A stretch of 53,281 nucleotides of DNA from positions 1 to 53,281 of the IMG/VR virus record IMGVR_UViG_3300047094_001628; one strand, 5' to 3'. The position numbers and the translations under genes are program-made. Under the pieces are notes generated by a model that was given only the letters and a program-made list of their open reading frames with translations, was not told where the DNA came from and searched no databases. Of the stretch, positions 1 through 32,747 are shown piece after piece (position 1 is the first letter of the stretch; each line of letters starts with the position of its first letter). The stretch comes from a virus (taxonomy: Duplodnaviria; Caudoviricetes).

Positions 1-879
1 TAGATCATTTCCTGAAATTAAAATTTCACTTTCACTTTTTATTTTGTGTTGATCATTTTTAACATCTTCAAAAAACTTAGATATTAATCCATTAGATTCT
101 ATTTCAAAATAGTGAAAACTTTCAGGATGCATATAAGTTAAAAGTGTAAAAAGTGATTCTTCAGTACCCATATATCCCTTAGATAAAGTATCAGACATAA
201 GATGGTAATAAAGAGAATTGAAACTTTCTATTTTTTCTTTGGGGCCACCAAAAAACCCACCACGACATACTTTATCAATTTTTTTGTTGGTCATACGACA
301 CATTTCAGAATAGTCAAATCCGTGAATTTCATTATTCGCTTCGTATGGAAATGCGACAAAAGTTATGTTTTTTAACTTTTCTAGCTTTGTTAAAACTTTG
401 TCGTGAGTAAAATAACCTGGGTGTACTGTATTAGTTATACCTGCGTCTATCCAAAATAGATTTGTTGAATTAAATCTGTCCATTATTCGAGCATCATTCA
501 ATAAAAAAACTTTGGACATTACCAATGGGTTATACATTTCAAGACGAGCTTGTGTAGATTCAGGTAACCAACCTGATTGATTATACCAATTTGGATTTTT
601 TCTAATAATTTGAATCTTATCAAAAAATTCATTTTTGAACCAATCTTGAGACCTTACAATAAATTGAGTTTTCGATCTATCCCTTTTGGTTAAAACCCAA
701 TCTTCTAGTTCCTTTTCCCCGAAAATGATAAGGTTTTCTTCAATTGATAATAGTTGTTCTAGTTTCGAAAGATAGTGGTTGAAACTTCTTGACCAACCCT
801 CCGTAAGACTTTCTCTATTTATGTTCCACAGTCCAGTTACCAATGTTAATGATTTGGTTTTTTCTACATTTGATTTCAC
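1..879 (-). CDS. HtrL/YibB (WlaTC)-family putative glycosyltransferase, 3' end runs off the window
   Basis: Not in the ORF track; translated by hand from GTG at 879: VKSNVEKTKSLTLVTGLWNINRES...YNPLVMSKVFLL...FWIDAG...GGFFGG...MGTEE, open to position 1. TLVT, WIDAG and GGFFGG are HtrL-family motifs. Confidence 0.7.
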   Translation of the reverse strand, partial: MKSNVEKTKSLTLVTGLWNINRESLTEGWSRSFNHYLSKLEQLLSIEENLIIFGEKELEDWVLTKRDRSKTQFIVRSQDWFKNEFFDKIQIIRKNPNWYNQSGWLPESTQARLEMYNPLVMSKVFLLNDARIMDRFNSTNLFWIDAGITNTVHPGYFTHDKVLTKLEKLKNITFVAFPYEANNEIHGFDYSEMCRMTNKKIDKVCRGGFFGGPKEKIESFNSLYYHLMSDTLSKGYMGTEESLFTLLTYMHPESFHYFEIESNGLISKFFEDVKNDQHKIKSESEILISGNDL

Positions 880-965: not shown

Positions 966-1646
966 TTAATTTATTGTAGTGGTGTCCCCACTAGTAATAA
1001 AAAAATTATTTTTTCTCCTTTCTTCGTATACTAAATTATCTTCATTGTTAAATTGAAAATTTTTGATTTCAGTTTCATCTCCACCTTTCCAATCGTGAAA
1101 AAAAGGACAAAAACCAGGGGTGAAAACATTTCTACCTAACATCTTAGAGATTTCTGTGTACTCATTATCTGCGAAAATACTTTTGTAAGATGAATGATAT
1201 ATGTACCCAAATCTTTTGAAGTAATCCCATCCCATTATACAATTTATATCTAATAAATCACTCCATCTTGTACTTTGTGTGTGTAGCATACAATCTAATC
1301 CTAAATTCGAGTTTTGAAAGTACTCAATAATCTTTGTGTCGTAACAATCAACTACTGGAATCATATCATCACTAGCAAGAATTAAAATATCAAAAAATTG
1401 ATTTTCTAAATTAGCATTTATTGCCTCAATTTTATTTTTATTGTTACCATAGAAAACTTCATGATTTATATTTAATTCATTTATAAAATTAATTATATCT
1501 AAATTGTTCATCGAAAAATCATCAACATCAAAAGAAAAAACAAATTTAGTATTTTGGGGATTTTCTAATTTATCCCGATAAAGTTTCAAAACTTTTTTAA
1601 ATTGGTCGGGTCTACCCCGTGATGGGAATTTAATTAAAATTTTCAT
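966..1646 (-). CDS. GT-A fold (GT2-like) glycosyltransferase
   Basis: KFPSRGRP N-terminus, ILILASDDM DxD-type motif, ADNEY; close paralogue of 21452..22111. Confidence 0.7.
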   Translation of the reverse strand: MKILIKFPSRGRPDQFKKVLKLYRDKLENPQNTKFVFSFDVDDFSMNNLDIINFINELNINHEVFYGNNKNKIEAINANLENQFFDILILASDDMIPVVDCYDTKIIEYFQNSNLGLDCMLHTQSTRWSDLLDINCIMGWDYFKRFGYIYHSSYKSIFADNEYTEISKMLGRNVFTPGFCPFFHDWKGGDETEIKNFQFNNEDNLVYEERRKNNFFITSGDTTTIN

Positions 1647-3163
1647 AATTCAATTGGATTATTTTTTATGTAATTTTTACCATTTATTTCTGATTGTGAT
1701 TCCAAACTTCCTTGATATTTCTTAGAACCATCTGTGTAAGCGACGAAAGGACCATCACCGATATTACCGTATAAAAAAGTCCCCCAATTATCTCTTATTT
1801 CCTCCCACTCGTGTTCGGAAATTTCTTTTCTGTATTTATAAATTAAAGTTTCTTCAATACTCTGTAGACCATTAATAATAAAACCATCAGTTTGTTTTTT
1901 AACAATTTCTTCGAACCAAAACCTCATCTTAGATGTTCTAAACATAACAGGATTGTTTGACCATCGACAAGTTGTGACTAATTTCAACTCTTCAACTCTT
2001 TTCTCTAATTCAAAAGGGGTTACATTTTTGTTTTTATCCTCTGATATTTCGGAATCTCTCGAGATATTATCGTCCTTAGAAAACCAAACAGCGTTTATAA
2101 AATTGTGTTTTTTAAAAACCTCCAATAAAGTAAGAAAATCTATCTTGTTTTCATTCAAGAAAACCCAGTCATGTTCTAAAAAAATAAAAAAAGGAGTTGT
2201 TATTTTCTTTAAAAGATTATCAAAAGAAGAAAGTGACCCTCCTGTAATGAAATCTAGTTCAATATTAATTTCATTTTTCTTATCTCTTAAGTATGAAATA
2301 AGTTTAAACCTATTCGTGTGATTTTCTTCGGAACTTTCATCATAATTGATAATAAATTTACACTTTATTAAATCTTTTGGTAAACTGTATAAAAGATAAT
2401 TAAGATAGAATAAAAAATTTTCTGTATAATTACCTGTAATTACAATTGTTATATTTCTTTCGATTTCAAACTTTTTTTTCCTACTTGATATGTTCTCATA
2501 AAAAAATTTATCAAAACTACCGTTAATCCAGACATCATAGTTCACGGGTCCGTTGGGTTGGAGTGTTGATTCTAATCCTACGGAATGATGTATCAACATA
2601 GGGGTTGTACACAGAGTTTTAAAACCTTTATGATTCATATAAGGTAGATAATCATCAATAGCTAATAAATCTTTTTGATAATTTAAATTTTCTAAAATAT
2701 ATTTTATTGCTCTTTTTTTTATTATGTAAGCCCACGCACCAGTGGATTTATGTACCTGTGCTAAATTTTCTGTTACAGGAATCAAAAAACTTTTAGGATT
2801 ACAACCTAGTAATATGATATCCCAATCGACATTTTTGGTATCATAAATTACCTCGGTGAGCTGTTGTTCGAAATATTTTTTATCATCAGATATTGGATAA
2901 TATAATTCATCTCTGATATCAAAATCGTCTTCTGAAATAAAAACAGTTTCGTATCCATTTTGAATACAATTTTCTAAAACGGCTAAATGACTTTTTGTAC
3001 AAGAGTATTGTTTCCAGTTGTCTTCCAAAGCATTAAATCTCTCAAGTGACTCGATCTTATAAACGTTAATTTGATTTTCAATTTTGTTTTTTCGTTCAGT
3101 GGATCGTTCTAAATTAATATAAAACCCAGCCTCTGCAATTTCTTTTCCTAAAATACTAAACAT
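1643..3163 (-). CDS. Two-domain glycosyltransferase: N-terminal GT25-like domain plus C-terminal GT-A-like domain
   Basis: YINLERSTER, SCTKSH, SEDD, WDIILLG, GAWAYII and AID are GT25 hallmarks; the C-terminal half has FIFLEHDW and WSNNP. Confidence 0.7.
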   Translation of the reverse strand: MFSILGKEIAEAGFYINLERSTERKNKIENQINVYKIESLERFNALEDNWKQYSCTKSHLAVLENCIQNGYETVFISEDDFDIRDELYYPISDDKKYFEQQLTEVIYDTKNVDWDIILLGCNPKSFLIPVTENLAQVHKSTGAWAYIIKKRAIKYILENLNYQKDLLAIDDYLPYMNHKGFKTLCTTPMLIHHSVGLESTLQPNGPVNYDVWINGSFDKFFYENISSRKKKFEIERNITIVITGNYTENFLFYLNYLLYSLPKDLIKCKFIINYDESSEENHTNRFKLISYLRDKKNEINIELDFITGGSLSSFDNLLKKITTPFFIFLEHDWVFLNENKIDFLTLLEVFKKHNFINAVWFSKDDNISRDSEISEDKNKNVTPFELEKRVEELKLVTTCRWSNNPVMFRTSKMRFWFEEIVKKQTDGFIINGLQSIEETLIYKYRKEISEHEWEEIRDNWGTFLYGNIGDGPFVAYTDGSKKYQGSLESQSEINGKNYIKNNPIEL

Positions 3164-3365: not shown

Positions 3366-4613
3366 TTATAAATTTCCAGTTAATCTTTCACACCAACCTT
3401 TGGACTCGGAGTGAGGCCAAACGACCCAATATTTAGGCATATGAGAGGTTTGAAACTCTCTCCACACTTTACAATATCCATCAGGGTCATTCATCATTCT
3501 TGCAATTTCAGATTTGTCTGCATCTTTTCTGAAGATTGTCTCATCTGTTTCATCGTGAAAAGCCACAACCCAAAAGTCATAATCTTTTTCTTGAACTTGT
3601 GAATACCCAATATCAATGCAATGTTTAAAAATCATTGCAAAGTCGGATTTCCATTCTTCTTCAGAAGAATAGTTATATGGATTTGGTGGATGATGTTTAT
3701 CTAGTGTATATTGTTGAACGGCTCTTTTTTCGAAAAGTAGTCCAGAATATTTCTCATAATCTCTAAGTGATCTGACTTTACCAAACCCATATTTACCTTC
3801 GTGACCCTCTTGGGTTAAACCATCCATACCAAACAATTTTCTGTTCGTTAAATGAGACACATTATTTTTTTCAACCCAATGTTTATCATCATCCCATTGT
3901 TTGGTTCTACCTTTTCTAGTATACTCATGCCAAATAAGAACTTTATGTGGATGGAATAAGTCGTATCCCCAAGTATAAGCTCTAGCTGCTATGGAAATTT
4001 CTTCTCCGTGAAAATAGTATTCTGGATTATGTTGAACTTCTTTACAAAACTTACCCAACGTAAAAGCGTAGTGTGCTGAATAAAATCTAGCAGTAACAGG
4101 CTCTGTCATTGATTGCCAATTTGGTATCGTTTCAGGTAAGAAAAATACAGCACCTTCAGGTATAAATCGGTCAAAAACCATTCTCCATGGTTCTTGTATT
4201 CTCGCGGCAGGATCATTGTCAGGATCAAAGGAAGACACATAACCTGTAAGTAATGGTTTCTTATAACCTTTTTTCTGTAATTGTTTGACCATTGCAATCA
4301 TTTCAGTATCCCAATGAGGTGCAAACCTCATATGTGAATCTAACTGCATTGTATACTGTTCCTTATTGTATAATTGTTGAATTTGGTTTCTAGCCCAACA
4401 TGCTCCTTTTGACTCGGTATAAGGGATGTTTAAAATCCTAAATCTTTCATCGGTCATGTATTCTGTCAAGTCGTCAAACTTGTCCTCGGGATGAAATTGA
4501 CGAGCAATTCCAAAAACTAAATTTTCAGGTTTATCAGCATTTTCTAAACAACTCAAGATTGTTTTTTTTAACTCAGGATCTCGATATGACGCAATTTGAA
4601 TGAATATTTTCAT
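3366..4613 (-). CDS. GT60-family (Gnt1-like, Pfam GlcNAc) polypeptide alpha-N-acetylglucosaminyltransferase
   Basis: IFIQIASYRDPEL, SKGACWAR, QLDSHMRF (DSH motif), FHGEE and AYTWGYDLFHP are characteristic of the family. Confidence 0.85.
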   Translation of the reverse strand: MKIFIQIASYRDPELKKTILSCLENADKPENLVFGIARQFHPEDKFDDLTEYMTDERFRILNIPYTESKGACWARNQIQQLYNKEQYTMQLDSHMRFAPHWDTEMIAMVKQLQKKGYKKPLLTGYVSSFDPDNDPAARIQEPWRMVFDRFIPEGAVFFLPETIPNWQSMTEPVTARFYSAHYAFTLGKFCKEVQHNPEYYFHGEEISIAARAYTWGYDLFHPHKVLIWHEYTRKGRTKQWDDDKHWVEKNNVSHLTNRKLFGMDGLTQEGHEGKYGFGKVRSLRDYEKYSGLLFEKRAVQQYTLDKHHPPNPYNYSSEEEWKSDFAMIFKHCIDIGYSQVQEKDYDFWVVAFHDETDETIFRKDADKSEIARMMNDPDGYCKVWREFQTSHMPKYWVVWPHSESKGWCERLTGNL

Positions 4614-4682
4614 AGTAAAATTTACTTTTGAAAAAAAAGTAATTAAACACTTATAAAGGTAAACAAATACTACTACATTGTT

Positions 4683-7600
4683 TTAACAAAGACCAGAAAT
4701 TGATGTAATTTCACCAGTACCTCCATCAATTTGGTAATGAATAATACCGTTTGAAACAAATCCAAATCCAGTCGCAGGGGTATTCAAATTTGTATCAATA
4801 TAAAGGATATCACCGATCTGAAGGCCTGAAAAACTCGCTCTAATACCATAGAATGTGTTACCATCATTCGAACAAGCTTCAGGATCACTTCCTCCAGTAC
4901 CTAAATTAGTGTATGCATAAGAAACAAAACCACTTTGTGAAGGTGTAACGGATGGAGTATTCGTTGGTGTTACAGTTTTAGTTGGGGTTACTGATGACGT
5001 TATAGACGTTGTAGGAGTATTCGTTGGTGTTACTGATGACGTTATAGACGTTGTAGGAGTATTCGTTGGTGTTACTGATGACGTTATAGACGTTGTAGGA
5101 GTATTCGTTGGTGTTAATCCAATCGTGGGTGTGACTGACGGAGTAATACTTGGTGTAGGGGTTGGTGTTGGTGTTGTATTACAACTACCCCAAATTGGTG
5201 GTGTCATAATAATAGGTATTCCAAAACGACCATAGTCTGGAGAATAAAAATCAGTTGGTTCTACAGGAATATTTGAAACACACCAAGAAGTTAATACAAA
5301 TTCCAATTGTGGGAAAGTATTCATACCTGCTCCAAAGAACATGTAATCCATATTAGTTGTTGAACTTACGTTCCAATTTGAAATTCCAGTGTAACTTGTT
5401 GTTGAATTAAATATAGTTTCACGGAATGCTGCGGTAAATCCTGTTACATTACTTACGTTCCAGTTAGTAATACCTGTTGGTGGTGTTGAAAAATTACCAG
5501 GACTAGAACCGAAGATGAAATTCATACTAGTCACCGAACTAACATCCCAATTCACAACCTCACCAATTGACGACCCAAATGATAGTTGATCCATATTCGT
5601 TACTTTTGATACATCCCAATTATCCAAACCTAAGATTGGGTAATAAGTACTATTATAACTAAAGGTGCCAACCATAGAAGTTATGTTTGACACATTCCAT
5701 CCAGAAAAAGAAGTAAGTAGAACAGAACCCCCAGGTAGTTGAGTTAGATATGGATTACAAGATCTAAATGCGTAGTCCATATTTGTTACCCCATCAAGGA
5801 TGTAGAATGGTATAACTGATGGTAACTTTAATTCATTTTGATTATAAACATTACTTACAACTCCTCGATCAAACCAAGACCCTTCGTTGTGACCTATTCT
5901 AAAATTACCAAATTGCTCAACCCCCAAAAAGTTTGTTTTACTTTTACCTGTGGCATTACCTAACTTCCAACCTGTTATTTTTCCAGAAATTGTTACGGTT
6001 CTAACATTACTTGCACCTGTGTAAACAAATCGTGGTCTAGTTGCTGGTGCAACATTGTTGGTATAAGTGTGACTTCGTGTATTATATGAGTTAGAAGTAA
6101 TTACACCATCACCCCAATTAATTGTACCGTCATACGTACCACCACTAATATATGGTAATGTAATTGTATCACCTGATTGAGCGTAATAGAATAAGATTGT
6201 ATCCTGATAAGTTATAGGAGTATAAGTCGGTGTTGGAGTCACAGAAGTTTGAGTTTGGGTTGGTGTGGGTGTTGGTGATTTAGTTGGAGTATTTGTTTGA
6301 GTTCTAGTTGGTGTAGGTGTTTGAGTATTTGTAGGTGTTTGAGTGTTTGTCGGAGTATTAGTTGGGGTTTGTGAATTTGTAGGTGGTGGTGTGGACCCTG
6401 AGCTACGACTTTGTGTCGGTGTCACAGTATTTGTTGGAGTTTTTGTTGTTGTTGGTGTTGATGTTGGTGTCTTTGTAGGTGTTTTGGTTGGTAATGGAGT
6501 TCTAGATGGTTGAGGAGGACAAGTACCCCAAATTGGTGGTGTTACGATGATTGGTATTCCGAAAATTCCACTTCCTAGAGTGTAAAACCCTGTTGGTTGT
6601 GAAGAAATATTTGAAACACACCAACCACTCAATACAAATTGTAATTGTGGATTGGTATCCATACCTGATTGTAAAAACATATTGTTCATATTTGTCGCAG
6701 ACCTCACATTCCATGAAGAAATTCCTGTTACTGTAGAATTTGAACTAAATATAGAACTTGAGAATGAACCTGAAAAACTGACCACGTTAGAGACATCCCA
6801 ATTTTCAATACCTGTTGGGACGTATGCTAGTGAAAAATTACCCATACTAGCAAAAATACTTGCCATATTGGTTACGGATGAAACATTCCAACTACTAACA
6901 TCACCGATTGAACCTCCCAAAGATAATTCTCTCATGTCTGTAACCTTAGATACATCCCAATTATTCAGACCATCACAAACAACACCATTGTAACTAAACG
7001 TACCTACCATAGAAGTTATGTTTGAAACATTCCAACCAGAGAAAGAATATGGAACAAATTGTTCGAAATATGGATTAGAAAATCTAAATGCGTAATCCAT
7101 ATTAGTAACACCTTCCAAAAGATAGAAAGGTATCTCTAACGGAAGTTTTAGTCCATAATGGTCAAAATTACTATTAGGTGAAGTAACTACCCCGAAATCG
7201 AACCATGAACCCTGATTATGACCAATTCTGAAATCACCGAATTGTCCAACACCTAAGAAATATCTTTTACTTATACCAGTTGCGTCACCTAACTTCCATC
7301 CATTTATTTTTCCAGAAATTGTTATGGTTCTAACATTAGTTGCTCCAGTTGTAACAAAGATATATGGATAACCATTACTAACATTTGCAGTAGGAGCAAC
7401 ATTGTTGGTATAAGTATGACTTCGTGTATTATAAGAGTTAGAAGTAATTACACCATCACCCCAATCAATTGTACCATCGTATGTACCGCCACTGATGTAT
7501 GGTAATGTAATTGTATCACCCGATTGAGCGTAATAGAATAGGATGGTATCTTGATAAGCTATGGGAGTATAAGATGGTGTATTTGTGGGAGTTAAAGATG

Positions 7601-10600
7601 GAGTATTACTAGGAGTAGGAGTAGGAACCGAAGAACAAAGAACTGAAGACGTAATTGTAGACCCTGAATTTTGCCAATAAATTACATAACTTACCGATAA
7701 ATCTTCGTTAGCGGAGAATGCTCTGTATCTATTTGCAAAACTAGATATAGGGGTTCCATCATTATAGTAAAGTACATCCCCAGAACCCAATTGACTCAAC
7801 GGTTTAGTTGTATACCCTATTTGGGTAGGTTCCAAATTATCACATGCAGTTTGTGCCGTTGTATAAGTTGTAACACCAAATCTACCATAGATCGGATAAC
7901 TAGAAGGTGTCGTTGGTGTTGGCGTAGGAGTATTGGATAGTGTTTGTGTAGGACAAGGGACTCCGAATTGAGGTAAGAATGTTATTTGAGAACCTGTTGA
8001 GAAGCCAAACGGTACAGATGGGATCAAACCTACACTCCATGTCGACAAATTTTGGTTGAATAAAGATGCTCCTGAGAACATACTAGTCATACCTGTTACA
8101 TTACAAACACTCCAATTTCCTATATTACTATTAATATTCGAATTAGAAAACATATAGGACATATCTGTCACCTTCGAAACATTCCAACCTCCAATTGTTA
8201 ATCCAGAACTCGCACTACTACCTAAGAACATAGAATTGGCATTCACCAAAGATCTAACATCCCAATTTGATAATGAATCTGTAAAGTTATTATATGAAAA
8301 CATATAACTCATATCTGTCACATTTCTAACAAACCATTGGCTTAGATTTACGATTGTCGAAGATTGTCCAGATGCACTTAAATTCATAAATGTTCCCTTC
8401 ATTTCATTAATAGTCCCAACACTCCAACTTTGTATGTTCATTTGGCTCGGTGCGATCAGTGTTGTGTTTTCAAATGTGTAATTTAAACTATTTGTATTGA
8501 ATATTGGAAAATAAAATTCATCCGAAATTATTAAACCATCCCTAATACCTCTGAAAGCATAGTCAAAGTTATACCATGGCATAGTTCCCCACTGAACAAC
8601 TTCAGATATTTTATTAGCATTTGAATATTTTACGACATTCGGTTGAGGATTACCTGTTAAGTATGGGTAATACAATCCTCCAAAAGCACCAACAGTAGAA
8701 CCCGATGGAGGTCCAATAGTTACAGTATAGACACCTGGTGTGTTATATTGTTTAGTAATGGTACCACCTGTGAAAGTTTGAGAATTACCATCACCCCAAT
8801 TTATATTATAACTCAAGCCAACTTCAAAAACTGAAAGTGTAAATTCATTTTCTGATATCGGAAAATCAGAATCACCAATTCTTGTGGTGTCTATTTTGAA
8901 TATGAATGGTAACGTTGGAGTATCAGGGTCAACATATTCTTCAGGAACCTGAGGTAGTACGGGTGGTGCCTGATTAAATAAACTTGTAGCACTTAAAGTA
9001 TAAACGAATGAGGGGTCACCTACGATAGCCAAACTATTAAATGACGAAGTTCCATTTAAACTGTTATAATCAATATCTGCTAAATCATAACGAGTTTGTC
9101 CTGAAGTTTGATTTGGAGGTATTGTTACATACCCAAATATCTCAATGGAACCACCGACATTTCTACCTAATGTATTTACAAAATCAACTCTAGTTGACAC
9201 GCTACTTGCAGTAAATCCAGTGATTAAATAAGTTATTTTGACAGAACCTGGGTTAAAAAAACCTGTCATTCCTAACGGAGTTTCCACACAAGGAGTACCG
9301 AACTGTGGTAAATTTGGATTAGATGTTGTAGCACTCAGTGATGGTTGATTTCCACCGAAATTTGCGGGTCTTGGTGATATTAATGGCATTTTCCAATCAC
9401 TCAAATTTTGATTGAAAGTACCACCAGTTGCAATACGATTTGGGTCAATATACAAAAATGATGTGGCAATTGATACATTACACACGTCCCAAGTACTTAT
9501 ATCTTGATTGAAATTGGGACAATTTCTGAACATATTCTGTATATTTGTAACATTACTGACATTCCAACCTGACAAAGGTTGATTGAAAACAGGGTATGTT
9601 TCACCAGTAAAGGGTAAGACCGTTATCCTAGATAAAAAATTAGGGAGGTTAGTGACACTAGATACATCCCAAACTCCAATTCCAGGATCGTTAAACCATT
9701 GAGAATTACTGAACATAGCACCGAGATTAGTGACATTACCCATCTCCCATAAATGAATATTATCAATTAACCCTGAATTCTGAATTGTCCCTGCTCTATC
9801 AGAAAATTTAAAACAATCTGAAAACCATGAAATACACTCAGTTACATCGGTCATATTCAGACTGCCAGTAACTGCGGAAAATTCACAATTACTACAACCT
9901 TGGAATGCACCCCTTGTTTGAATAGCTCCGTTGTTGATCTGTAACGGACCCCATTCTAAAACTTTTACTATTTTAAGTGCATTTACACTATCCCCCGAAA
10001 ATGACCACCCTTTTATAGTTCCAGTAATGGAAATTGTGTATGTACCAGGATTTGTATATGTATGAGAATTATCACTAAAACTAGTGATAGTATCCGATGT
10101 ACTATCACCCCAATCAACCACACAATTATAGTCGCCATAACTTACGAGGGGTAATTGAATTGTTTCATTATTTTCTATAGTTGTCCATTGGGACCTAAAT
10201 GTTGGTTCAACAAAACCTTGAGTTTTGGTGGGTGTAGGTGTTTGTGTATTGGTCGGAGTGTTGGTATTAGTTGGCGTTACAGTAGGTGTTAAAGTGTTAG
10301 TCGGAGTATTTGTTTGAGTTCGAGTTGGTGTTGGTGTTTGAGTTGGAGTCGGTGAAGGTGTGACACCAATCATAGAACATAATTGTACGTCAGTTATTGT
10401 AGTTCCATCGGTTTGATAAAAAATGTAATATTTTGTCGTTACAGATGAAGAATCGGCTATTGCTTTGTAACGATCTCCACTACCTTGTATAGGTTGATTT
10501 GTATCTATATCATAAATTTGGTCCCCAGGTCTCAATTCATTTAAAGGGCTGAGAATATATCCATAAAGTATAGCACTTTCAGTAGTCAAAAGATCACAAG

Positions 10601-11267
10601 CAGATCGAGCCGATGAACTACCGCCCACTGGAAATTCATTTGAATATACAGTATATTTAATGGGCAAAGTAGATGATGGTGTGACCGTAGAGGTGTTAGT
10701 CGGGGTTTGAGTCTGTGTTTGGGTAGGTGTTGTTGTAGGGGTATTTGTGGGTAAAATTTGATTACACGAAGTGACACTAGTTATTATAGAACTTGAATTT
10801 TGATAATAAATTACATAACCTGTTGTTGAGTTGTCTTGTGTTGAACTCAATGCCCTATACCTATTTGCAACTCCTACAACTATGGGTTCATTAGTCGCGA
10901 CATCAAAAATTTGATCGCCTGACCCAAGTTCCGACAAAGGTTTACGAGTGTAACCAATTAAAATTAATGAAGTACCGCCATCACGTAAATCAGAACACGC
11001 AGTTGTAGAGTCTGTTTGTAACGTTAAAGTGTCCGAATAGACATAATATTTAGTAACAGAAGCTGTTGTACTCGGAAAATCAATTGTATTTGTTATGTTT
11101 TGACCCTCACTTGCGGTTAATAAGGTACCCGTTATGTACCAAACATTGATTACCTCACTAGGTAATATCTGTTGATTATCTATTAATATATTATCACCAC
11201 ATCTTCGATAACTAATTGAACTAATTTGAGATAATGTATTTTGGATTGTTGACTTTTTACAAAACAT
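4683..11267 (-). CDS. Giant modular surface/fibre protein (2194 aa): four PKD-like plus DUF285/BspA-type 26-residue-repeat modules separated by Thr/Pro-rich linkers
   Basis: Four (D/N)WGD PKD-like starts, many WDVSxVTxM/FNQxLSxW repeats, long TPTNTPT tracts, no signal peptide. Confidence 0.8.
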   Translation of the reverse strand: MFCKKSTIQNTLSQISSISYRRCGDNILIDNQQILPSEVINVWYITGTLLTASEGQNITNTIDFPSTTASVTKYYVYSDTLTLQTDSTTACSDLRDGGTSLILIGYTRKPLSELGSGDQIFDVATNEPIVVGVANRYRALSSTQDNSTTGYVIYYQNSSSIITSVTSCNQILPTNTPTTTPTQTQTQTPTNTSTVTPSSTLPIKYTVYSNEFPVGGSSSARSACDLLTTESAILYGYILSPLNELRPGDQIYDIDTNQPIQGSGDRYKAIADSSSVTTKYYIFYQTDGTTITDVQLCSMIGVTPSPTPTQTPTPTRTQTNTPTNTLTPTVTPTNTNTPTNTQTPTPTKTQGFVEPTFRSQWTTIENNETIQLPLVSYGDYNCVVDWGDSTSDTITSFSDNSHTYTNPGTYTISITGTIKGWSFSGDSVNALKIVKVLEWGPLQINNGAIQTRGAFQGCSNCEFSAVTGSLNMTDVTECISWFSDCFKFSDRAGTIQNSGLIDNIHLWEMGNVTNLGAMFSNSQWFNDPGIGVWDVSSVTNLPNFLSRITVLPFTGETYPVFNQPLSGWNVSNVTNIQNMFRNCPNFNQDISTWDVCNVSIATSFLYIDPNRIATGGTFNQNLSDWKMPLISPRPANFGGNQPSLSATTSNPNLPQFGTPCVETPLGMTGFFNPGSVKITYLITGFTASSVSTRVDFVNTLGRNVGGSIEIFGYVTIPPNQTSGQTRYDLADIDYNSLNGTSSFNSLAIVGDPSFVYTLSATSLFNQAPPVLPQVPEEYVDPDTPTLPFIFKIDTTRIGDSDFPISENEFTLSVFEVGLSYNINWGDGNSQTFTGGTITKQYNTPGVYTVTIGPPSGSTVGAFGGLYYPYLTGNPQPNVVKYSNANKISEVVQWGTMPWYNFDYAFRGIRDGLIISDEFYFPIFNTNSLNYTFENTTLIAPSQMNIQSWSVGTINEMKGTFMNLSASGQSSTIVNLSQWFVRNVTDMSYMFSYNNFTDSLSNWDVRSLVNANSMFLGSSASSGLTIGGWNVSKVTDMSYMFSNSNINSNIGNWSVCNVTGMTSMFSGASLFNQNLSTWSVGLIPSVPFGFSTGSQITFLPQFGVPCPTQTLSNTPTPTPTTPSSYPIYGRFGVTTYTTAQTACDNLEPTQIGYTTKPLSQLGSGDVLYYNDGTPISSFANRYRAFSANEDLSVSYVIYWQNSGSTITSSVLCSSVPTPTPSNTPSLTPTNTPSYTPIAYQDTILFYYAQSGDTITLPYISGGTYDGTIDWGDGVITSNSYNTRSHTYTNNVAPTANVSNGYPYIFVTTGATNVRTITISGKINGWKLGDATGISKRYFLGVGQFGDFRIGHNQGSWFDFGVVTSPNSNFDHYGLKLPLEIPFYLLEGVTNMDYAFRFSNPYFEQFVPYSFSGWNVSNITSMVGTFSYNGVVCDGLNNWDVSKVTDMRELSLGGSIGDVSSWNVSSVTNMASIFASMGNFSLAYVPTGIENWDVSNVVSFSGSFSSSIFSSNSTVTGISSWNVRSATNMNNMFLQSGMDTNPQLQFVLSGWCVSNISSQPTGFYTLGSGIFGIPIIVTPPIWGTCPPQPSRTPLPTKTPTKTPTSTPTTTKTPTNTVTPTQSRSSGSTPPPTNSQTPTNTPTNTQTPTNTQTPTPTRTQTNTPTKSPTPTPTQTQTSVTPTPTYTPITYQDTILFYYAQSGDTITLPYISGGTYDGTINWGDGVITSNSYNTRSHTYTNNVAPATRPRFVYTGASNVRTVTISGKITGWKLGNATGKSKTNFLGVEQFGNFRIGHNEGSWFDRGVVSNVYNQNELKLPSVIPFYILDGVTNMDYAFRSCNPYLTQLPGGSVLLTSFSGWNVSNITSMVGTFSYNSTYYPILGLDNWDVSKVTNMDQLSFGSSIGEVVNWDVSSVTSMNFIFGSSPGNFSTPPTGITNWNVSNVTGFTAAFRETIFNSTTSYTGISNWNVSSTTNMDYMFFGAGMNTFPQLEFVLTSWCVSNIPVEPTDFYSPDYGRFGIPIIMTPPIWGSCNTTPTPTPTPSITPSVTPTIGLTPTNTPTTSITSSVTPTNTPTTSITSSVTPTNTPTTSITSSVTPTKTVTPTNTPSVTPSQSGFVSYAYTNLGTGGSDPEACSNDGNTFYGIRASFSGLQIGDILYIDTNLNTPATGFGFVSNGIIHYQIDGGTGEITSISGLC
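4987..5116. repeat. Perfect 42-bp tandem repeat x3 encoding TPTNTPTTSITSSV
   Basis: gttactgatgacgttatagacgttgtaggagtattcgttggt starts at 4987, 5029 and 5071. Confidence 0.95.
5180..7560 (-). repeat. Internal duplication of a PKD plus DUF285 module (about 5180-6215 versus about 6517-7560)
   Basis: YQDTILFYYAQSGDTITLPYISGGTYDGTI(D/N)WGDGVITSNSYNTRSHTYTNNVAP occurs twice almost identically; both copies end ...PPIWGxC. Confidence 0.9.
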
Positions 11268-11282
11268 ACTTTTAAAATTTAC

Positions 11283-11290
11283 TATAAATA
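11283..11290 (-). promoter_or_regulatory. Candidate late-promoter motif TATTTATA
   Basis: Lies 15 nt upstream of ATG 11267; the same motif recurs before many structural genes. Confidence 0.6.
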
Positions 11291-11462
11291 CAAACGCAAT
11301 AGAAAATCGTTGAGTTAAAGAATACTTACAAATAAATTTTTAATCAAAAAACTTTATTCAAAACTAAAAATTCCGTAATTAAAAAGTTTTCAGAATTTGT
11401 ACTTGAAAACTGAACAGTTATCTCTGAGTGTTTGTTAGAGTTGGTGTTGGTGTTGGAGTATT

Positions 11463-14063
11463 TTACACATAAATAACATTAACACAAGGACATTGTGGTG
11501 AAACTGAATTCACTGTAAAACCACTTACACATTCACCTTGTTGTAATACAGGACTTAAATTAAAGTTGTGAGTATGGTCGTTTTGTTTTATTGTTTCGGT
11601 ACCACTAAAAATGGTGCCCAAATCACCATAAGCGGTACCCGAAACAACATAGTCACACACGGCATTTCCATTTTGAGTAAACCCAGGATCATCAAAAACT
11701 TTCAAATTAAAGTTACTACAACCCCCTAGATTTACTTCCAAATATTGGGTTGTGAATGTCGCACAAGTCGGGGTATTCGTCGGTGTGTTTGTGGGTGTTT
11801 GGGTATTAGTAGGTGTTTGACTATTTGTCGGTGTTTGTGTTATTGTGTTAGATGGAGTGTTTGTAGGTGTTTGACTATTTGTTGGTGTTTGTGTATTGGT
11901 TGGTGTTTGAGTCGGAGTATTAGTTGGGGTTGCCGTCGGAGTTGAATCAAGACACGTAAAACAATAAGCGTTCAAGAAATCGTATTTTGGTTCTAATATT
12001 CTTGCATTATGTTGTATTTCAGGTATAGTCAAAGGTTTAGCATACATCGAAAAAGAAGAAATTCCCCCATCAAATGACCCTGCAAAATTCTGTTCAATTA
12101 AAATATTAGTAGTTAACGCACTTAAACTTGTTCCACTCAAGATGTTTGGTGGGAATAATTCAGGATCTTGAATATAATAATTTAAATCATTGGTAGGAAT
12201 AGCACTAAAAATTAAATTCTCGTGTAGTCCTTGTGTACCTCCACCCCATGAAATATTAAATGGAACCCCCACTTGAGTTTCTTTATGGCCATAAAGTCCT
12301 CTCGGAATAATTTCTTCGACATTGTCAAAAGTTTCGAATAATTTACCATTTACAAAAATTTTGAATTTTCCTTTACGGAAACCTTTTTCCAATAACCACT
12401 CATTGTTAAGTTGTACCAACTCTTCTTTTTCAGGATTTAATTGGTAATGTGTTATTGGCGGTGAAATTAATGAAACTGAATTACTATCTGTAGATGCTGT
12501 GAATACTAAATTAGAAATTACACCTAAACCACCAAGGTAAACTAAATCACATTCATCCAATGCCGTATTTCTTTCAAAAACCACATCAATTAAAACCCAA
12601 TGTTCATCTAATGAATAAGTCGTTCCACTACATTCATCGTATATTCTTTTTGTAGTACAATAGTTGTTAATTGAGTATCCTGTTTGAGATTCGAAACCTG
12701 TGGTTTCACAACTACCACTAGTTATACAATCACCCGTCATAGTTAAGGTTCTAATACATATTTTTGGATTGGTTGGATCACCGCTAAATCTTATGGCAAG
12801 TGCGTTGGACATCCCGTTATAGGCTGCATCTTGTTCTGCTACAGGGACTTGTGGTTCATCAGGACAACAAGGACTTTCCGTGTAGTGATAATCTGTAACC
12901 CCAGTAGGTGGATACACAAAATAACAATCGGAATTATTGTATTCTAAAAAATTTAATTTATCAACAATCCAATATTGAAAATCTCCTTTTCCAACACGAT
13001 AGGTTGTAACAAATTGTAAAGAACTTGTTTCAGCTGAATACCCAATAACATTACCTGTTAAAAAAGCAAGTTCGTTATGATATACAACACAAGTATCCCC
13101 TGAAGTCCATAACAAATCCTGGCCAACTTGAATTGTCGCACCTGAAACACTCAAGTCAAAATGAGATGTGGAGTTAGTTGAGTATCCTAGATTTAGTGTT
13201 GTACAATCACAAGTTGTTAAATCTTTTAATCTTTTAGTTACCCGATCATAATCAGGATCTGTGGGATTTTTTCCTTGTGCAAAATGCCAATATTTGTTTT
13301 CGGCACGAGTACCTAAGTAGAAAAAAATACCCGAATTGTTTGGGTAATATTGGTTTAGAGTTGTTTTACCTGATGGCGTTGAATACTGATTGTATATCCT
13401 TGGTTTCAGTGTCATTTCAACTGTCCAACCTTTGGTATATCTTTCAGGTAGTATTTTATAATTATACCCGAAAAGTTCATAAAAACCTTGATAAAATCCT
13501 CCGTAAAGTTCATTGTAAACTCCAACTGTATTAGCTGTATACGATACCATTTCATAGGCAGTTTCTGCGGTAATTCCCGAAAATCTATGATTTGGATGGT
13601 TCGTATATCCGGTTACTTGAAATAATTTTAATCTTCTATCAAATTTTAATCGATCGAACTTTTCACTATCGTCCAATAACCCTTCAGTATATGAGATACT
13701 TTGACCTGTCATTCCTGTAACTAATCCATTGTCAGTACCTGTCAAACCTATATCACAAATACTTTTTCCTGAAAAACAATCCAAAATATAATCATAAGGA
13801 TTATAATAGTTTTCAGAAACTATTACGTTTTCCCTTTTATACTCACCAAATGGTAAATCTATTTTCTGAGATGATCCTGAAAAATTTAAATCAATTTTTA
13901 CAGGTAATACATCACCATCATTAGCACCAATAATTAATGGCGAAAAAACAACTTCTTCATTGTATTGTCGTTCATCATTGGCTAAAGAGATATCCGAAAT
14001 TTGTAATACAGGTTGTAAATACAACTTTGATTTGACATATTGATTGATGTTTTGATAAGCCAT
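11463..14063 (-). CDS. Large putative virion protein with a split LamG/ConA-like lectin fold and a C-terminal Thr/Pro repeat
   Basis: GWTVEMTLKP, FKIFVNGKL, NISWGGG and FDGGISSFSMYAKPLTIPEIQHN resemble LamG motifs; TPTNTQTP tract at about 11765-11945; Cys-rich. Confidence 0.6.
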   Translation of the reverse strand: MAYQNINQYVKSKLYLQPVLQISDISLANDERQYNEEVVFSPLIIGANDGDVLPVKIDLNFSGSSQKIDLPFGEYKRENVIVSENYYNPYDYILDCFSGKSICDIGLTGTDNGLVTGMTGQSISYTEGLLDDSEKFDRLKFDRRLKLFQVTGYTNHPNHRFSGITAETAYEMVSYTANTVGVYNELYGGFYQGFYELFGYNYKILPERYTKGWTVEMTLKPRIYNQYSTPSGKTTLNQYYPNNSGIFFYLGTRAENKYWHFAQGKNPTDPDYDRVTKRLKDLTTCDCTTLNLGYSTNSTSHFDLSVSGATIQVGQDLLWTSGDTCVVYHNELAFLTGNVIGYSAETSSLQFVTTYRVGKGDFQYWIVDKLNFLEYNNSDCYFVYPPTGVTDYHYTESPCCPDEPQVPVAEQDAAYNGMSNALAIRFSGDPTNPKICIRTLTMTGDCITSGSCETTGFESQTGYSINNYCTTKRIYDECSGTTYSLDEHWVLIDVVFERNTALDECDLVYLGGLGVISNLVFTASTDSNSVSLISPPITHYQLNPEKEELVQLNNEWLLEKGFRKGKFKIFVNGKLFETFDNVEEIIPRGLYGHKETQVGVPFNISWGGGTQGLHENLIFSAIPTNDLNYYIQDPELFPPNILSGTSLSALTTNILIEQNFAGSFDGGISSFSMYAKPLTIPEIQHNARILEPKYDFLNAYCFTCLDSTPTATPTNTPTQTPTNTQTPTNSQTPTNTPSNTITQTPTNSQTPTNTQTPTNTPTNTPTCATFTTQYLEVNLGGCSNFNLKVFDDPGFTQNGNAVCDYVVSGTAYGDLGTIFSGTETIKQNDHTHNFNLSPVLQQGECVSGFTVNSVSPQCPCVNVIYV

Positions 14064-16676: not shown

Positions 16677-17894
16677 ATGCAAAAATCAAAGATTAATATT
16701 TTAGTATTACCTTCAGATACTACAGGAGTTGGTAAATTTAGGTCATTAGATCCGCACATAATGTTACAAAATATGTACGGTGATGAATTTCATATTGACA
16801 TTGATTATCAACCTCAACTCAATGACATAAATTTTTGGAAAAAATACCAAATAGTACATTTCCATCGAACCATTGGTCAAAACTACGATGTTTCTGCCAA
16901 CCTTATTAAAATGGTTGGTCAATTGGGAATAAAAACAATAATGGATTTGGACGATTATTGGCTCCCAACAAAAGACCACCCCATTCACGATTTAGTCGTA
17001 TCAAATAAAATTCATGAAAAAATAATAGAAAACCTTAAAGTTAGTGATTATGTTACGACGACAACGAGTCTTTTTGCTCAAGAAATGTCGAAACACAACA
17101 AAAATGTGGTCGTATTTCCAAATGCAATTAGTAAAACAGAAACACAGTTTAATGCAGTTACAGAACCATCAGATAAGTTAAGATTTGGATGGTTGGGTGG
17201 ATCATCTCACTTACACGATATTACTATACTTGAATCAATTTTTTCTCGTATGCATGAATTCAAAGACACTACTGAAGTGTATCTTTGTGGTTTCGACATT
17301 AGAGGTAGTGTTACCGAAATCAACCAACAAACAGGTGAACAGAAAAAAAGGGATATTAAACCTCACGAAACGGTGTGGTACAAATACGAACAAGTTTTTA
17401 CAGACAATTACAAACTAATTTCACCCGAATATCATAATTTTCTTATGAGATTTAAAGAAGAAGATGATAGACAATTTTCTCACGAATTTTACAAAAGAGT
17501 TTGGACAAGACCTATCCAACAATACGCAAAAAACTACGCAAAGTTTGATGTATCGTTAGCTCCAATTAAAAATCATATATTCAATAGGATGAAATCTCAA
17601 TTGAAAGTAATTGAGGCTGGTTTTTATAAAAAAGCGTTAATTGCGTCGAATTTGGGACCTTATACTATAGATTTGACTCACGCCCTAGACAATGGTATAT
17701 TTACAAACGGAAACGCCCTTTTAGTAGATGAAAACAGAAATCATAGTGATTGGTTCAAATTTACTAAAAAACTTATCCAAAATCCAAATTTTGCAAAAGA
17801 CTTGGGTGAAAGATTATATGAGACAGTACACGAAAAATATAGCTTAGAAAAAGTTACAAAAGATAGAGCAGAATTTTACAAATCCATACTATGA
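16677..17894 (+). CDS. GT-B fold (GT4-like) glycosyltransferase
   Basis: MDLDD, VTTTT, FPNAI, GWLGGSSHLHD, DVSLAPI..HIFNRMKSQLKVIEAG. Confidence 0.8.
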   Translation: MQKSKINILVLPSDTTGVGKFRSLDPHIMLQNMYGDEFHIDIDYQPQLNDINFWKKYQIVHFHRTIGQNYDVSANLIKMVGQLGIKTIMDLDDYWLPTKDHPIHDLVVSNKIHEKIIENLKVSDYVTTTTSLFAQEMSKHNKNVVVFPNAISKTETQFNAVTEPSDKLRFGWLGGSSHLHDITILESIFSRMHEFKDTTEVYLCGFDIRGSVTEINQQTGEQKKRDIKPHETVWYKYEQVFTDNYKLISPEYHNFLMRFKEEDDRQFSHEFYKRVWTRPIQQYAKNYAKFDVSLAPIKNHIFNRMKSQLKVIEAGFYKKALIASNLGPYTIDLTHALDNGIFTNGNALLVDENRNHSDWFKFTKKLIQNPNFAKDLGERLYETVHEKYSLEKVTKDRAEFYKSIL

Positions 17895-18592
17895 TAACAC
17901 AACAAATAAATAAAATCCTTTTTTTTGACATTGAAACCGTAGGTTTATTCAGGAACTACGAAGAACTAGAGAAGAATAATGAAATGTTATTAAAACAATT
18001 TCATAACTATTTCGACTGGTTTTTAAAAAGATTTCCTGAAGATAAGGAATTACCTAAAGAACAAGTTTTTATTAACAGAGCGGCGCTTGTACCAGAATTT
18101 TCGAAAATCGTTTGTGCAAGTTTTGCATTTGTCACACCTGATGGTAAAGTTCACAAACAGACCATTTCAGGTGATGATGAAAAACAAGTATTGTTAGAAA
18201 TAAATCAATTGTTTAATAAAGTTCAAAAATCTGATTTTTGGTTGTGTGGACATAATGTAAAAAATTTTGATATACCACACCTTCTTAAAAGAATGGTAAT
18301 TAACGGAATAAAACCATCTACACTTTTACCTAGTTATGAAACAAAACCTTGGGAAATTAGAGCAATTGACACAATGGATGTTTGGAAATTTGGTAATCCC
18401 TTTGGTTTATCTTCTTTGGAATTGATGTGTGCTGCTATGGGGGTACCTTCCTCCAAGGAAGGTGAGATCACTGGAAATCGAGTACATGAAGCATATTGGG
18501 AATACAATCAATTGAATTTGATTGTTGAATATTGTGAACGTGATGTATTGGTTTTAGTAGATTTAATAAAAAAACTTAAAGAGTTGAAATGA
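17891..18592 (+). CDS. DEDD 3'-5' exonuclease (PolB-exo-related, DNA_pol_B_exo2-like)
   Basis: ExoI FFDIET, ExoII GHNVKNFDIP, ExoIII YCERDV. Confidence 0.85.
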   Translation: MITQQINKILFFDIETVGLFRNYEELEKNNEMLLKQFHNYFDWFLKRFPEDKELPKEQVFINRAALVPEFSKIVCASFAFVTPDGKVHKQTISGDDEKQVLLEINQLFNKVQKSDFWLCGHNVKNFDIPHLLKRMVINGIKPSTLLPSYETKPWEIRAIDTMDVWKFGNPFGLSSLELMCAAMGVPSSKEGEITGNRVHEAYWEYNQLNLIVEYCERDVLVLVDLIKKLKELK

Positions 18593-19263
18593 TGAAAGAT
18601 TCAGATTTAAATGAAAATAAAGAGGACTTTGACTTTGATTTAGATTCAACACTTGATCAATTACATGAGGAGTTGAAAGAGTTGTCACGTAATCTCGAAG
18701 AAAATGGAGATAATGAATTATCTAATTTATCAGAAAAACTTGGTGTAGATTTTGAAAAACTAATAGAAACTCTTTCTTCGAGTGAAAATTCAAACATAAT
18801 TAGTGAAAATGTTTTTGATGGTCGAATTAGATTGAACTATGTTAAAATTCATCCAGATGCTGTTGACCCAAAATACAATTATGGAACTGATTCATGTTTT
18901 GATTTACACTCAGTTATAGATTATGAGTTGGGTGGATTTCAAAGAGCTTTGATACCGACTGGTTTAAAGTTTGACATTCCAGCGTATAATGAACTTCAAG
19001 TGCGAACTAAAAGTGGACTAGCAATCAACCAAGGGTTGGTAGTATTAAATAGTCCAGGAACAATAGATTCAGGTTACAATGGTGAAATAAAAGTAATAGT
19101 TTATAATACAACGTCTGAATCAATTTTTATAAAAAAACAACAAAAAATTGCTCAATGTGGACTGTATCCTGTTTATGTTGGATCTGTAGTCATTTTACAA
19201 CAACTAGATAGTATACAAGAAAAAGACAGAGGGGCAAATGGTTTTGGTTCAACAGGAATTTAA
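18589..19263 (+). CDS. dut: Trimeric dUTPase with an acidic N-terminal extension
   Basis: FDL, KSGLA, GTIDSGYNGEI, IAQ and RGANGFGSTG match dUTPase motifs 1-5. Confidence 0.92.
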   Translation: MMKDSDLNENKEDFDFDLDSTLDQLHEELKELSRNLEENGDNELSNLSEKLGVDFEKLIETLSSSENSNIISENVFDGRIRLNYVKIHPDAVDPKYNYGTDSCFDLHSVIDYELGGFQRALIPTGLKFDIPAYNELQVRTKSGLAINQGLVVLNSPGTIDSGYNGEIKVIVYNTTSESIFIKKQQKIAQCGLYPVYVGSVVILQQLDSIQEKDRGANGFGSTGI

Positions 19264-19265
19264 TT

Positions 19266-20765: not shown

Positions 20766-21315
20766 AATAACATTTATTATACCGTCATTGAATAGGCCAA
20801 CAATTATTAATTCCATTGAATCACTATTAAAACAGACTAAACCGAATTGGGAGTGTGTAGTTATTTATGATGGGGTTGATGGTCCTGATTTTAATGATGA
20901 CCGGATTAAAGTACTTAAGATAACTAAAACAGGTACAATCGGTCCTTTTAATGGACAATCAGGACTAGTCAGAAATTTTGGTATCAAAGAGTCTAAAACT
21001 AAATGGATTGGATTTTTAGATGATGACGATACCATACATAAAGACTATGTAAAAGATTTATTCGATAAGTATTCTAACTATGATTTCGTGGTTTGGAGAA
21101 TGGTCTACACTGATGGTCGAATATTACCCCCACCAAATAATGATGATTTGTCATTTGGAAGTGTTGGTATTTCTTTTTGTTTTAAAAATAAATTTGAAAA
21201 TCTATTATTTGATAACAACAGGAACGGTGAAGATTATGATATGGTAACAAAATTAAAATCACTAACTTCAAATTTTATAGTTACGCCTGAAGTATATTAT
21301 AATGTAAGACACTAA
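20755..21315 (+). CDS. GT2 glycosyltransferase
   Basis: Likely start MEDKITFIIPS at 20755; RNFGIK, WIGFLDDDD, GEDY. Confidence 0.85.
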   Translation: MEDKITFIIPSLNRPTIINSIESLLKQTKPNWECVVIYDGVDGPDFNDDRIKVLKITKTGTIGPFNGQSGLVRNFGIKESKTKWIGFLDDDDTIHKDYVKDLFDKYSNYDFVVWRMVYTDGRILPPPNNDDLSFGSVGISFCFKNKFENLLFDNNRNGEDYDMVTKLKSLTSNFIVTPEVYYNVRH

Positions 21316-21349
21316 AATAAATATTAACTATTTACCAAAGAATGTTTAT

Positions 21350-21439
21350 ATGATTAACATAATAGAAATAACTAATGAAAATCAATTAACGAATAGTTAT
21401 ATTTTAACTTCTGAGGTGATGTATAAAAAAAATCATTAA
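21350..21439 (+). pseudogene. 29-codon relic whose C-terminus resembles the end of the preceding GT2
   Basis: MINIIEITNENQLTNSYILTSEVMYKKNH* versus ...SLTSNFIVTPEVYYNVRH* of 20755..21315. Confidence 0.45.
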
Positions 21440-21451
21440 AGACAATTAATT

Positions 21452-24328: not shown

Positions 24329-24331
24329 ATA

Positions 24332-29697: not shown

Positions 29698-29712
29698 ATT
29701 AATTGATAAATT

Positions 29713-31686: not shown

Positions 31687-31690
31687 CAAA

Positions 31691-32746: not shown

Positions 32747-32747
32747 A

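Follow-up and report, generated by a model that had tools for sequence, protein, structure and literature searches.

Positions 1 to 53,281 of the IMG/VR virus record IMGVR_UViG_3300047094_001628, a stretch that we call the window, come from a T4-like phage and encode a 415-aa glycosyltransferase (GT) of the GT60 family next to two large modular proteins of 866 and 2194 aa with tracts rich in threonine and proline (TP tracts). Our data suggest that the TP linkers of such proteins are probably targets of the GT60 enzyme, because the pairing of enzyme and tract recurs in other phages and in bacteria. The explanation that we favour, with moderate confidence, is a phage-encoded protein O-glycosylation cassette, in which TP linkers would be modified in the cytoplasm and extended by neighbouring GTs. 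The linkage of GT60 to TP proteins was read from genomes and is an association, not proof of an enzyme–substrate relationship.

The initial annotation had assigned the 415-aa protein to GT60, and both its family match and its predicted fold bear this out. The protein matches Pfam family PF11397, which we take to be CAZy family GT60, in two stretches (E 1.6e-65; 222.3 bits, cut-off 21), and its PF11397 relatives number 4366 clusters at 50% identity (E <= 0.001). Some GT60 relatives are giant and contain up to four GT60-like stretches (P0122, 2461 aa; P0125, 2022 aa). Across 45 aligned sequences with 34–89% identity to the 415-aa protein, the SYRD motif of the first strand (A8, Y10, R11, D12), D92-S93-H94, E204-E205 and H229 are invariant or at least 90% conserved. 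D92-S93-H94 (DxH) is nearly invariant and H229 invariant, and by analogy these residues may bind a metal. The AlphaFold2 model (predicted local distance difference test score, pLDDT, 95.8; predicted template modelling score, pTM, 0.91) has a GT-A catalytic domain from aa 1 to about 300, followed by a beta-rich C-terminal domain of ~90–110 aa (aa about 325–415). Bacterial homologues, with alignments spanning residues 3–415, have this domain too. A Foldseek search of the PDB returned GT27 polypeptide GalNAc-transferases at about the first 35 ranks listed (best E 6.2e-11). An independent structural scan of 48,161 chains placed mouse GalNAc-T1 at the top (Z 21.3, rmsd 3.6, 275 residues aligned) and Toxoplasma gondii GalNAc-T3 second (Z 19.9), with generic GT-A folds at Z 16.9 or less. 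A phmmer search of the PDB with the same protein gave no match. No membrane segment was seen in the sequence or in the model. Judged from the model, the 415-aa protein is a soluble PF11397/GT60-family member with a predicted fold closest to the mucin-initiating GT27 enzymes. GT60 enzymes are described as polypeptide alpha-GlcNAc-transferases related to GT27 (PMC8724618, PMC6939170) and as being without the C-terminal ricin-like lectin domain of GT27 (PMC8724618).

As the initial annotation had stated, the two TP proteins are encoded directly upstream of the GT60 gene on the same strand (Table 1), and the positions of the open reading frames (ORFs) and of the tract sites agree on this. Among all window ORFs of at least 80 aa, TP tracts are confined to these two proteins. 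The DNA pattern for TPTxTPT occurs at 17 sites in the window, all on the minus strand and between positions 5011 and 11942. Of these, the 2194-aa gene has eleven and the 866-aa gene five, and one is found in the spacer between the two. No site was found in 100 dinucleotide-preserving shuffles, and the number expected by chance is 0.00. This strict pattern was used for all statistics; a looser criterion gave false positives in spurious high-GC bacterial frames. The two proteins had also been described as lacking a signal peptide, and no hydrophobic signal-like stretch is visible at either N-terminus, judged by eye and with no predictor applied. In the 2194-aa protein the DUF285 modules and small domains are set apart by at least six TP linkers, which are 17–92 residues long and contain as many as 37 Thr each. 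Part of this protein is duplicated internally (aa 1239–1583 and aa 1688–2029, 66.6% identical), and its PHROG matches have unknown function only.

Homologues of the 866-aa protein reveal where the tracts stand. The core of this protein has 1698 homologues at E <= 0.001, and linker positions were analysed in the best 120 of the 1698, which include the 40 closest. Among the 40 closest, a TP tract is present in all 33 homologues longer than 740 aa and absent from all seven of 740 aa or less. In the best 120, a tract was found in 58 of 64 long and 8 of 56 short homologues. In most of the 33 long homologues among the 40 closest it starts within ~20 residues of the core end (aa 703–724). The modules appended beyond the linker vary (LamG, papain-like and others). 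The TP tracts are interdomain linkers of variable length. In related locus L005, where the GT60 protein is 98% identical to that of the window, a single ORF (L005:2-2185) has the core joined by a linker of about 200 residues to the C-terminal domain of the 866-aa protein, from which a second linker leads on to the last domain of the 2194-aa protein. The corresponding linker in the window has ~70 residues, and the window's counterpart of this ORF ends at the 866-aa stop codon, followed by a leftover TP-coding stretch. Since linker length and module content differ between near-identical phages, the linker DNA looks like a site of module swapping, and recombination within it would appear to change both linker length and modules.

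The association of GT60 with TP tracts was examined in 80 related viral loci, whose GT60 proteins are 59–99% identical and fall into 32 clusters at 90% GT60 identity. TPTxTPT sites are present in the available flanks of 26 of the 32 clusters. Thirty clusters have at least 1 kb of upstream sequence, and in 15 of them the same-strand ORF immediately upstream encodes a tract. Around the viral GT60 genes there are 1.19 sites per kb on the upstream side and 0.52 on the downstream side, compared with 0.05–0.32 per kb over the whole genomes of four near-complete relatives. Complete or near-complete genomes gave the same association. Four relatives carry 71, 103, 35 and 16 TPTxTPT sites and Xanthomonas phage XacN1 carries 51, with 0–1 sites of the reversed control pattern in these five genomes, and PF11397 is present in all five. 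Five other relatives (Mel-JY01, LR756508, immuto, XaC1 and PA5oct) have no TPTxTPT site in 1,470,294 bases and no PF11397 member, and tblastn agrees. The contrast is also seen between the two Xanthomonas phages, XaC1 having none and XacN1 its 51 sites. A GT60 homologue was found in 4 of 50,697 isolate-phage records. The Stenotrophomonas phages CM1 and RAS14 have a GT60 protein with 44.8% identity. In the reverse direction, 76 distinct IMG/VR records were chosen only by a TPTxTPTxTPT site, a non-random sample consisting mostly of fragments. Among the matches listed, PF11397 is present in 17 of the 76 and in 3 of the 9 that are at least 90% complete.

Bacteria provide a separate view of the same pairing. 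A scan with one genome per species gave 559 GT60 relatives, from which 80 loci were kept, and the first 40 were used for site statistics. A TPTxTPT site lies within the 10-kb flanks of 13 of these 40 loci. The chance expectation is at most 2.8, and 13 was reached in none of 200,000 simulations. This null is conservative, because every genomic site was treated as an independent cluster, which overstates chance. In four genomes most sites of the whole genome lie inside the GT60 locus (27 of 29, 14 of 17, 18 of 25 and 3 of 4). The initial annotation had proposed as a check whether GT60 and TP-repeat genes occur together, and they do so both in phages (five of five against none of five genomes) and in bacteria. 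The bacterial partners are diverse. In Paraherbaspirillum soli, an Achromobacter and a Ralstonia, a VgrG spike of the type VI secretion system (T6SS), with Phage_GPD, OB and gp5 C-terminal domains, has a C-terminal (TP)n tail and is encoded near GT60. In a Gemmatimonadaceae genome the gene directly upstream of GT60 encodes a PqqD-domain protein whose C-terminal tail is rich in Thr and Pro, and further partners are LamG and BNR/fn3 proteins. These proteins are unrelated and the tract is their sole common feature, as a relation between enzyme and acceptor predicts.

Several observations weigh against a glycosylation cassette. In half of the dereplicated viral clusters (15 of 30) the immediate upstream ORF has no tract, and adjacency is not universal. 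Six of the 32 clusters have no strict site in the available flanks, and two of these (L072 and L076) have full 10-kb flanks on both sides. Six of the nine near-complete TP-bearing viral records, among the matches listed, have no PF11397 member; TP tracts therefore do not need a GT60 enzyme. The positive phage genomes represent about two to five lineages and not many independent ones, namely a freshwater clade, the group of XacN1 and three records (G060, G068 and G076) whose enzymes are more divergent; in G076 tracts lie within 1 kb of the GT60 gene. No site is near the GT60 gene in 27 of the 40 bacterial loci. A virion location of the 866-aa and 2194-aa proteins would follow from a lectin-like model of low confidence, from modular architecture and from analogy, and the virion glycoproteins of XacN1, discussed below, are not named in the main text of the paper on this phage (PMC5852040). 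Finally, the HtrL and GT25 families, both of which have likely members beside the GT60 gene of the window, are known from lipopolysaccharide (LPS)-core gene clusters according to the family descriptions.

The incomplete adjacency and the TP-bearing genomes without GT60 would suit an alternative in which the TP tracts are unmodified flexible linkers, the GTs act on another acceptor (a phage protein, a lipid-linked glycan or a free glycan) and the proximity arises from a shared hypervariable accessory region. The region is indeed highly variable, with modules gained and lost at linker DNA and with upstream ORFs that range from 157 to 1618 aa. The same proximity is nevertheless found in bacterial chromosomes, beside unrelated proteins that share only the tract, and the GT60-negative relatives have no tracts at all. 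The fold of the enzyme is also closest to the peptide-modifying GT27 enzymes. Together these points make unmodified linkers unlikely.

The genes downstream of GT60 had been annotated as GT25, GT2-like and HtrL-like. Of these, the HtrL-like assignment is clear, that to GT25 is marginal, and the 226-aa protein called GT2-like matches PHROG 14945 only, with no Pfam family. The 506-aa protein exceeds the PF01755 (GT25) cut-off of 24 with 25.6 bits (E 1.3e-5) and over residues 53–171 only; no family matched its C-terminal half, and a gene of this type adjoins GT60 in only some related loci. NCBIfam has no family for the 415-aa, 506-aa, 226-aa or 866-aa protein. The 293 residues of the HtrL/YibB-like protein match PF09612 with 63.1 bits against a cut-off of 24.1. 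They also match TIGR02192 (E 5e-21) with a score of 75.6 against an equivalog cut-off of 264.9, and because this NCBIfam cut-off is missed, the protein is an HtrL/YibB family member and not an orthologue of E. coli YibB. An HtrL-like gene occurs with GT60 in 70 of the 80 related viral loci, in one only weakly, and in four of the ten loci without it the downstream sequence extends for about 3 kb at most. XacN1 and Xoo-sp13 have the pair as well, and an HtrL-like gene stands beside GT60 in 31 of the 80 bacterial loci; in related Gemmatimonadota loci it immediately follows GT60. The 506-aa protein and the 226-aa GT are candidate extending enzymes. On the opposite strand a divergent sugar cluster possibly belongs with the GT60 cassette. 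It had been credited with about ten more GTs at 16.7–33.5 kb, which is an over-count. Six to seven are supported, namely four Pfam GT2-type genes, two PHROG GTs and one weak GT1 hint. The cluster also contains two methyltransferases, an aminotransferase, a UDP-sugar dehydrogenase and an epimerase/dehydratase, interspersed with a PolB-type exonuclease and a dUTPase (dUTPase/dCTP-deaminase-like) that bears an N-terminal extension.

This large adjoining cluster of sugar-nucleotide and GT genes, like the LPS-core background of HtrL/YibB and GT25, might instead mean that the cassette remodels a glycan of the host envelope (LPS core, O-antigen or capsule), for example as a block to superinfection or as an aid to release. 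Such a role would leave the association with TP tracts in phages and bacteria unexplained. The GT60 protein has no visible membrane segment, its nearest folds are polypeptide transferases, and the neighbours of GT60 in Burkholderiales are T6SS genes and not LPS genes. We therefore hold envelope remodelling to be quite improbable.

Two further alternatives concern the group that is modified. The Gnt1 enzyme of Dictyostelium and Toxoplasma is a soluble cytoplasmic GT60 that acts on hydroxyproline of Skp1 (PMC6939170), and the tracts of the window are rich in proline. An enzyme of this type could add GlcNAc to hydroxyproline in hydroxylated linkers instead of to Thr. A Pfam scan of 46 window ORFs gave no match to a 2-oxoglutarate oxygenase family, however, and the prolyl-hydroxylase-type family PF13640 was found in only one of the five GT60-positive genomes, about 210 kb from GT60, which makes hydroxyproline a very improbable acceptor. 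The GTs could also modify the phage DNA by glycosylating hydroxymethyl-pyrimidines, as in T4. The phage is T4-like, the neighbouring cluster has a dUTPase/dCTP-deaminase-like gene, and many phage GTs hypermodify DNA (bioRxiv 10.1101/2023.12.21.572611, PMC13326640). But the accessible text of neither of these papers mentions GT60 or PF11397, and the GT-A DNA enzymes that both describe carry R...DDD...EDY/F motifs (bioRxiv 10.1101/2023.12.21.572611, PMC13326640). PF12851 (Tet_JBP) was found in none of the five GT60-positive genomes, a weak negative for which no positive control came up. DNA modification would again leave the TP association unexplained, and we give it almost no credence.

Under the protein O-glycosylation reading, the soluble 415-aa enzyme would act in the cytoplasm of the infected cell and transfer an N-acetylhexosamine from a UDP-sugar to Thr (and Ser) hydroxyls of the TP linkers. 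By family precedent this sugar would likely be GlcNAc. The acceptors would be the linkers of the 866-aa and 2194-aa proteins, together with other TP-linker proteins encoded in the roughly 290-kb genome. The HtrL-like partner, and in the window also the GT25-like fusion and the 226-aa GT, may add further sugars. The outcome would be extended, protease-resistant, mucin-like stalks that hold lectin-like or adhesin-like modules off the particle. In this scheme we infer the acceptor, the sugar, the order of the enzymes, the virion location and the physical effect.

The proteins that would carry these stalks may be fibre or adhesin components. The model of the 866-aa protein has a mean pLDDT of 50. 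Where the model is ordered, it is similar to ConA/LamG/CBM40 jelly rolls, among them two phage tailspikes (Z 10–13.8, ~190 residues aligned), and because of the low mean pLDDT these matches are a lead only. In a viral structure library the only convincing match to this model was an uncharacterised, 45%-identical homologue, with other rows at a TM-score of ~0.09. A protein-atlas look-up of the core gave nameless viral clusters with LamG hints below 0.9, and tblastn of the core against the 50,697 isolate-phage records gave no match. Other jumbo phages have DUF285 modules too, and these carry no functional label there. Further TP-tract genes of the complete relative G001 adjoin a collagen-repeat gene, encode SprB repeats, or belong to the structural block, where they follow the terminase at a distance of a few genes. 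These features would suit proteins of fibre or adhesin type, although they are not proof.

The window, a 53-kb contig that makes up the whole record, is a fragment of the phage genome. Its products include a prohead protease and three T4-like proteins: a Gp23-type major capsid protein (E 2.4e-72), a T4-type portal (E 1.9e-72) and a T4-type large terminase. Only about half of the 620-aa capsid protein aligns, in two pieces, with the Pfam model and with other phages, which indicates a large extra region. The nearest isolate capsid proteins, those of Microcystis phage Mel-JY01 and Flavobacterium phage immuto, are ~41% identical. Related contigs that CheckV rates 93–100% complete span 274–321 kb, and the window's phage is therefore probably a jumbo phage. 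No tRNA genes were found within the window. A T4 late-promoter motif, TATAAATA, is located 23 nt upstream of the 866-aa start codon. This motif is not enriched in the window (9 found, 10.15 expected), and its chance frequency allows no conclusion on the timing of the 866-aa gene. There are only hints of a Bacteroidota host. SprB repeats are a feature of Bacteroidota, and the nearest cellular GT60/HtrL pairs, 64–69% identical, come from Saprospiraceae and Bacteroidia metagenome-assembled genomes (MAGs). A T4-type major capsid protein was not found in the five MAGs with the closest cellular GT60 genes, in a search without a positive control, which is weak evidence that these loci are cellular. 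'Moraphages', large phages from freshwater that have four core GTs and for which Bacteroidota hosts are predicted (PMC12619734), may or may not include the window's phage.

Table 1. Features of the window and of related loci (positions in nt unless aa is given; L numbers denote related loci)
Feature	Position	Strand	Description
866-aa modular protein	11463..14063	minus	ORF; no Pfam family matched
Core of 866-aa protein	aa 1-706, nt 11946-14063	minus	conserved among homologues
Thr/Pro linker of 866-aa protein	aa about 707-776, nt 11736-11945	minus	TP tract
C-terminal domain of 866-aa protein	aa 777-866	minus	small, Cys-containing
Vestigial Thr/Pro-coding stretch	11440..11459	minus	spacer just past 866-aa stop codon; TPTxTPT pattern match
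2194-aa modular protein	4683..11267	minus	PF03382 (DUF285, BspA-like repeat), E 1.2e-85, 7 stretches
Thr/Pro linkers of 2194-aa protein	aa 298-347, 1103-1129, 1208-1237, 1585-1676, 2022-2054, 2094-2110		linker map
415-aa GT60-family glycosyltransferase	3366..4613	minus	PF11397; PHROG 24687, E 2e-168
506-aa protein, GT25-like N-terminal domain	1643..3163	minus	PF01755 marginal; PHROG 2835 'glucosyltransferase', E 3.1e-7
226-aa putative glycosyltransferase	966..1646	minus	PHROG 14945 'glycosyltransferase', E 2.6e-7
HtrL/YibB-like protein, 293 aa present	1..879	minus	PF09612, E 4e-17; C-terminus cut by window edge
Small protein, WYL-domain match	15674-16069	plus	E 1.1e-4; between two divergent gene blocks
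Divergent sugar cluster	16677..33551	plus	6-7 GTs, two methyltransferases, sugar-nucleotide enzymes
Gp23-type major capsid protein, 620 aa	41915-43777	minus	Pfam model and other phages match in two pieces
G001 TP-tract protein with SprB repeats adjoining collagen-repeat protein	L290:4713-7322 and L290:2-2266
Paraherbaspirillum soli locus	L233:8529-16389		two tandem GT60 paralogues beside T6SS genes and VgrG-(TP)n
Achromobacter and Ralstonia VgrG-(TP)n loci near GT60	L264:15052-17535 and L283:12270-15131
Gemmatimonadaceae row, 1.17-Mb contig	L224:8455-12972		P-loop protein, PqqD-domain protein, GT60, HtrL-like domain fused to further domain

Mucin-type O-glycosylation started by GT27 or GT60 enzymes is treated as a process of the eukaryotic secretory pathway (PMC8724618). 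What is new here is a possible prokaryotic and viral version of it in the cytoplasm; glycosylation of phage virions is itself already known from mycobacteriophages and has been suggested for XacN1. If the cassette works as proposed, freshwater jumbo phages of a large and abundant group use a relative of these eukaryotic enzymes to make mucin-like stalks in the cytoplasm, and so do many bacteria, some of which fire T6SS spikes. This would bear on how receptor-binding modules are presented and protected, on host range and resistance to proteases and antibodies, and on the evolutionary origin of the GT27 and GT60 enzymes. It would also provide a simple soluble enzyme for glycosylating TP linkers in bacteria. 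A wider proposal, which we make tentatively and consider rather doubtful at present, is that GT60 and HtrL form a prokaryote-wide cytoplasmic module of mucin-type O-glycosylation dedicated to the TP linkers of proteins exported independently of Sec, such as phage fibres or adhesins and T6SS VgrG-(TP)n spikes. Contractile injection machines of viruses and cells would then bear stalks coated with sugar by an enzyme related to those that initiate mucin-type glycans in eukaryotes.

The initial annotation had held that such a system was not described. To our knowledge, glycosylation of phage-particle proteins is known from very few cases. We found no description of a pairing of GT60 with TP tracts in full-text searches, which covered main texts and, of the subscription journals, only a minority. 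The claim of novelty has to be qualified. The paper on XacN1 already lists ORF334, the GT60 homologue, as one of two phage glycosyltransferases and reports at least two virion glycoproteins, suggested to be made by phage enzymes (PMC5852040), and its accessible text makes no mention of GT60 or TP tracts (PMC5852040). ORF334 is 47.6% identical to the 415-aa protein over 99% of its length and has an HtrL-like gene ~4 kb away. The TPTxTPT sites of XacN1 lie in several large proteins, some next to tail genes (ORF232-237, ORF369-372 beside a tail-sheath completion gene, and the giant ORF384). XacN1 differs in belonging to another phage lineage with another host, and its neighbouring genes include a carbamoyltransferase. 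In mycobacteriophages, glycans are found on the C-termini of capsid and tail-tube subunits (as summarised in PMC12619734). The likeness is that phage-encoded glycosyltransferases decorate the phage's own structural proteins, as the window's cassette would do. The mycobacteriophage enzymes of Freeman et al. 2023 reportedly belong to other GT families.

Among eukaryotic systems, the protist GT60 enzymes (T. cruzi and the Dictyostelium Golgi enzyme) share with the phage enzyme the family PF11397 and a GT-A fold related to GT27. Their acceptors are Thr-rich mucin-like tracts, for example Thr of T. cruzi mucins (PMC3769586, PMC8724618). They act in the secretory pathway, whereas the phage and bacterial proteins appear to be soluble, with no membrane anchor seen. 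The prokaryotic clade differs further in its extra beta-rich C-terminal domain and in its usual HtrL-like partner gene. The metazoan and apicomplexan GT27 enzymes are the closest solved structures and have the DxH motif and the later His in common with the phage enzyme, although sequence identity is only 10–14%. Gnt1, which modifies Skp1, is likewise a GT60 that is soluble and cytoplasmic, and its acceptor is a protein of cytoplasmic synthesis (PMC6939170). It differs in that it modifies one hydroxyproline on one protein and requires a prolyl hydroxylase, a type of family found in only one of five related phage genomes.

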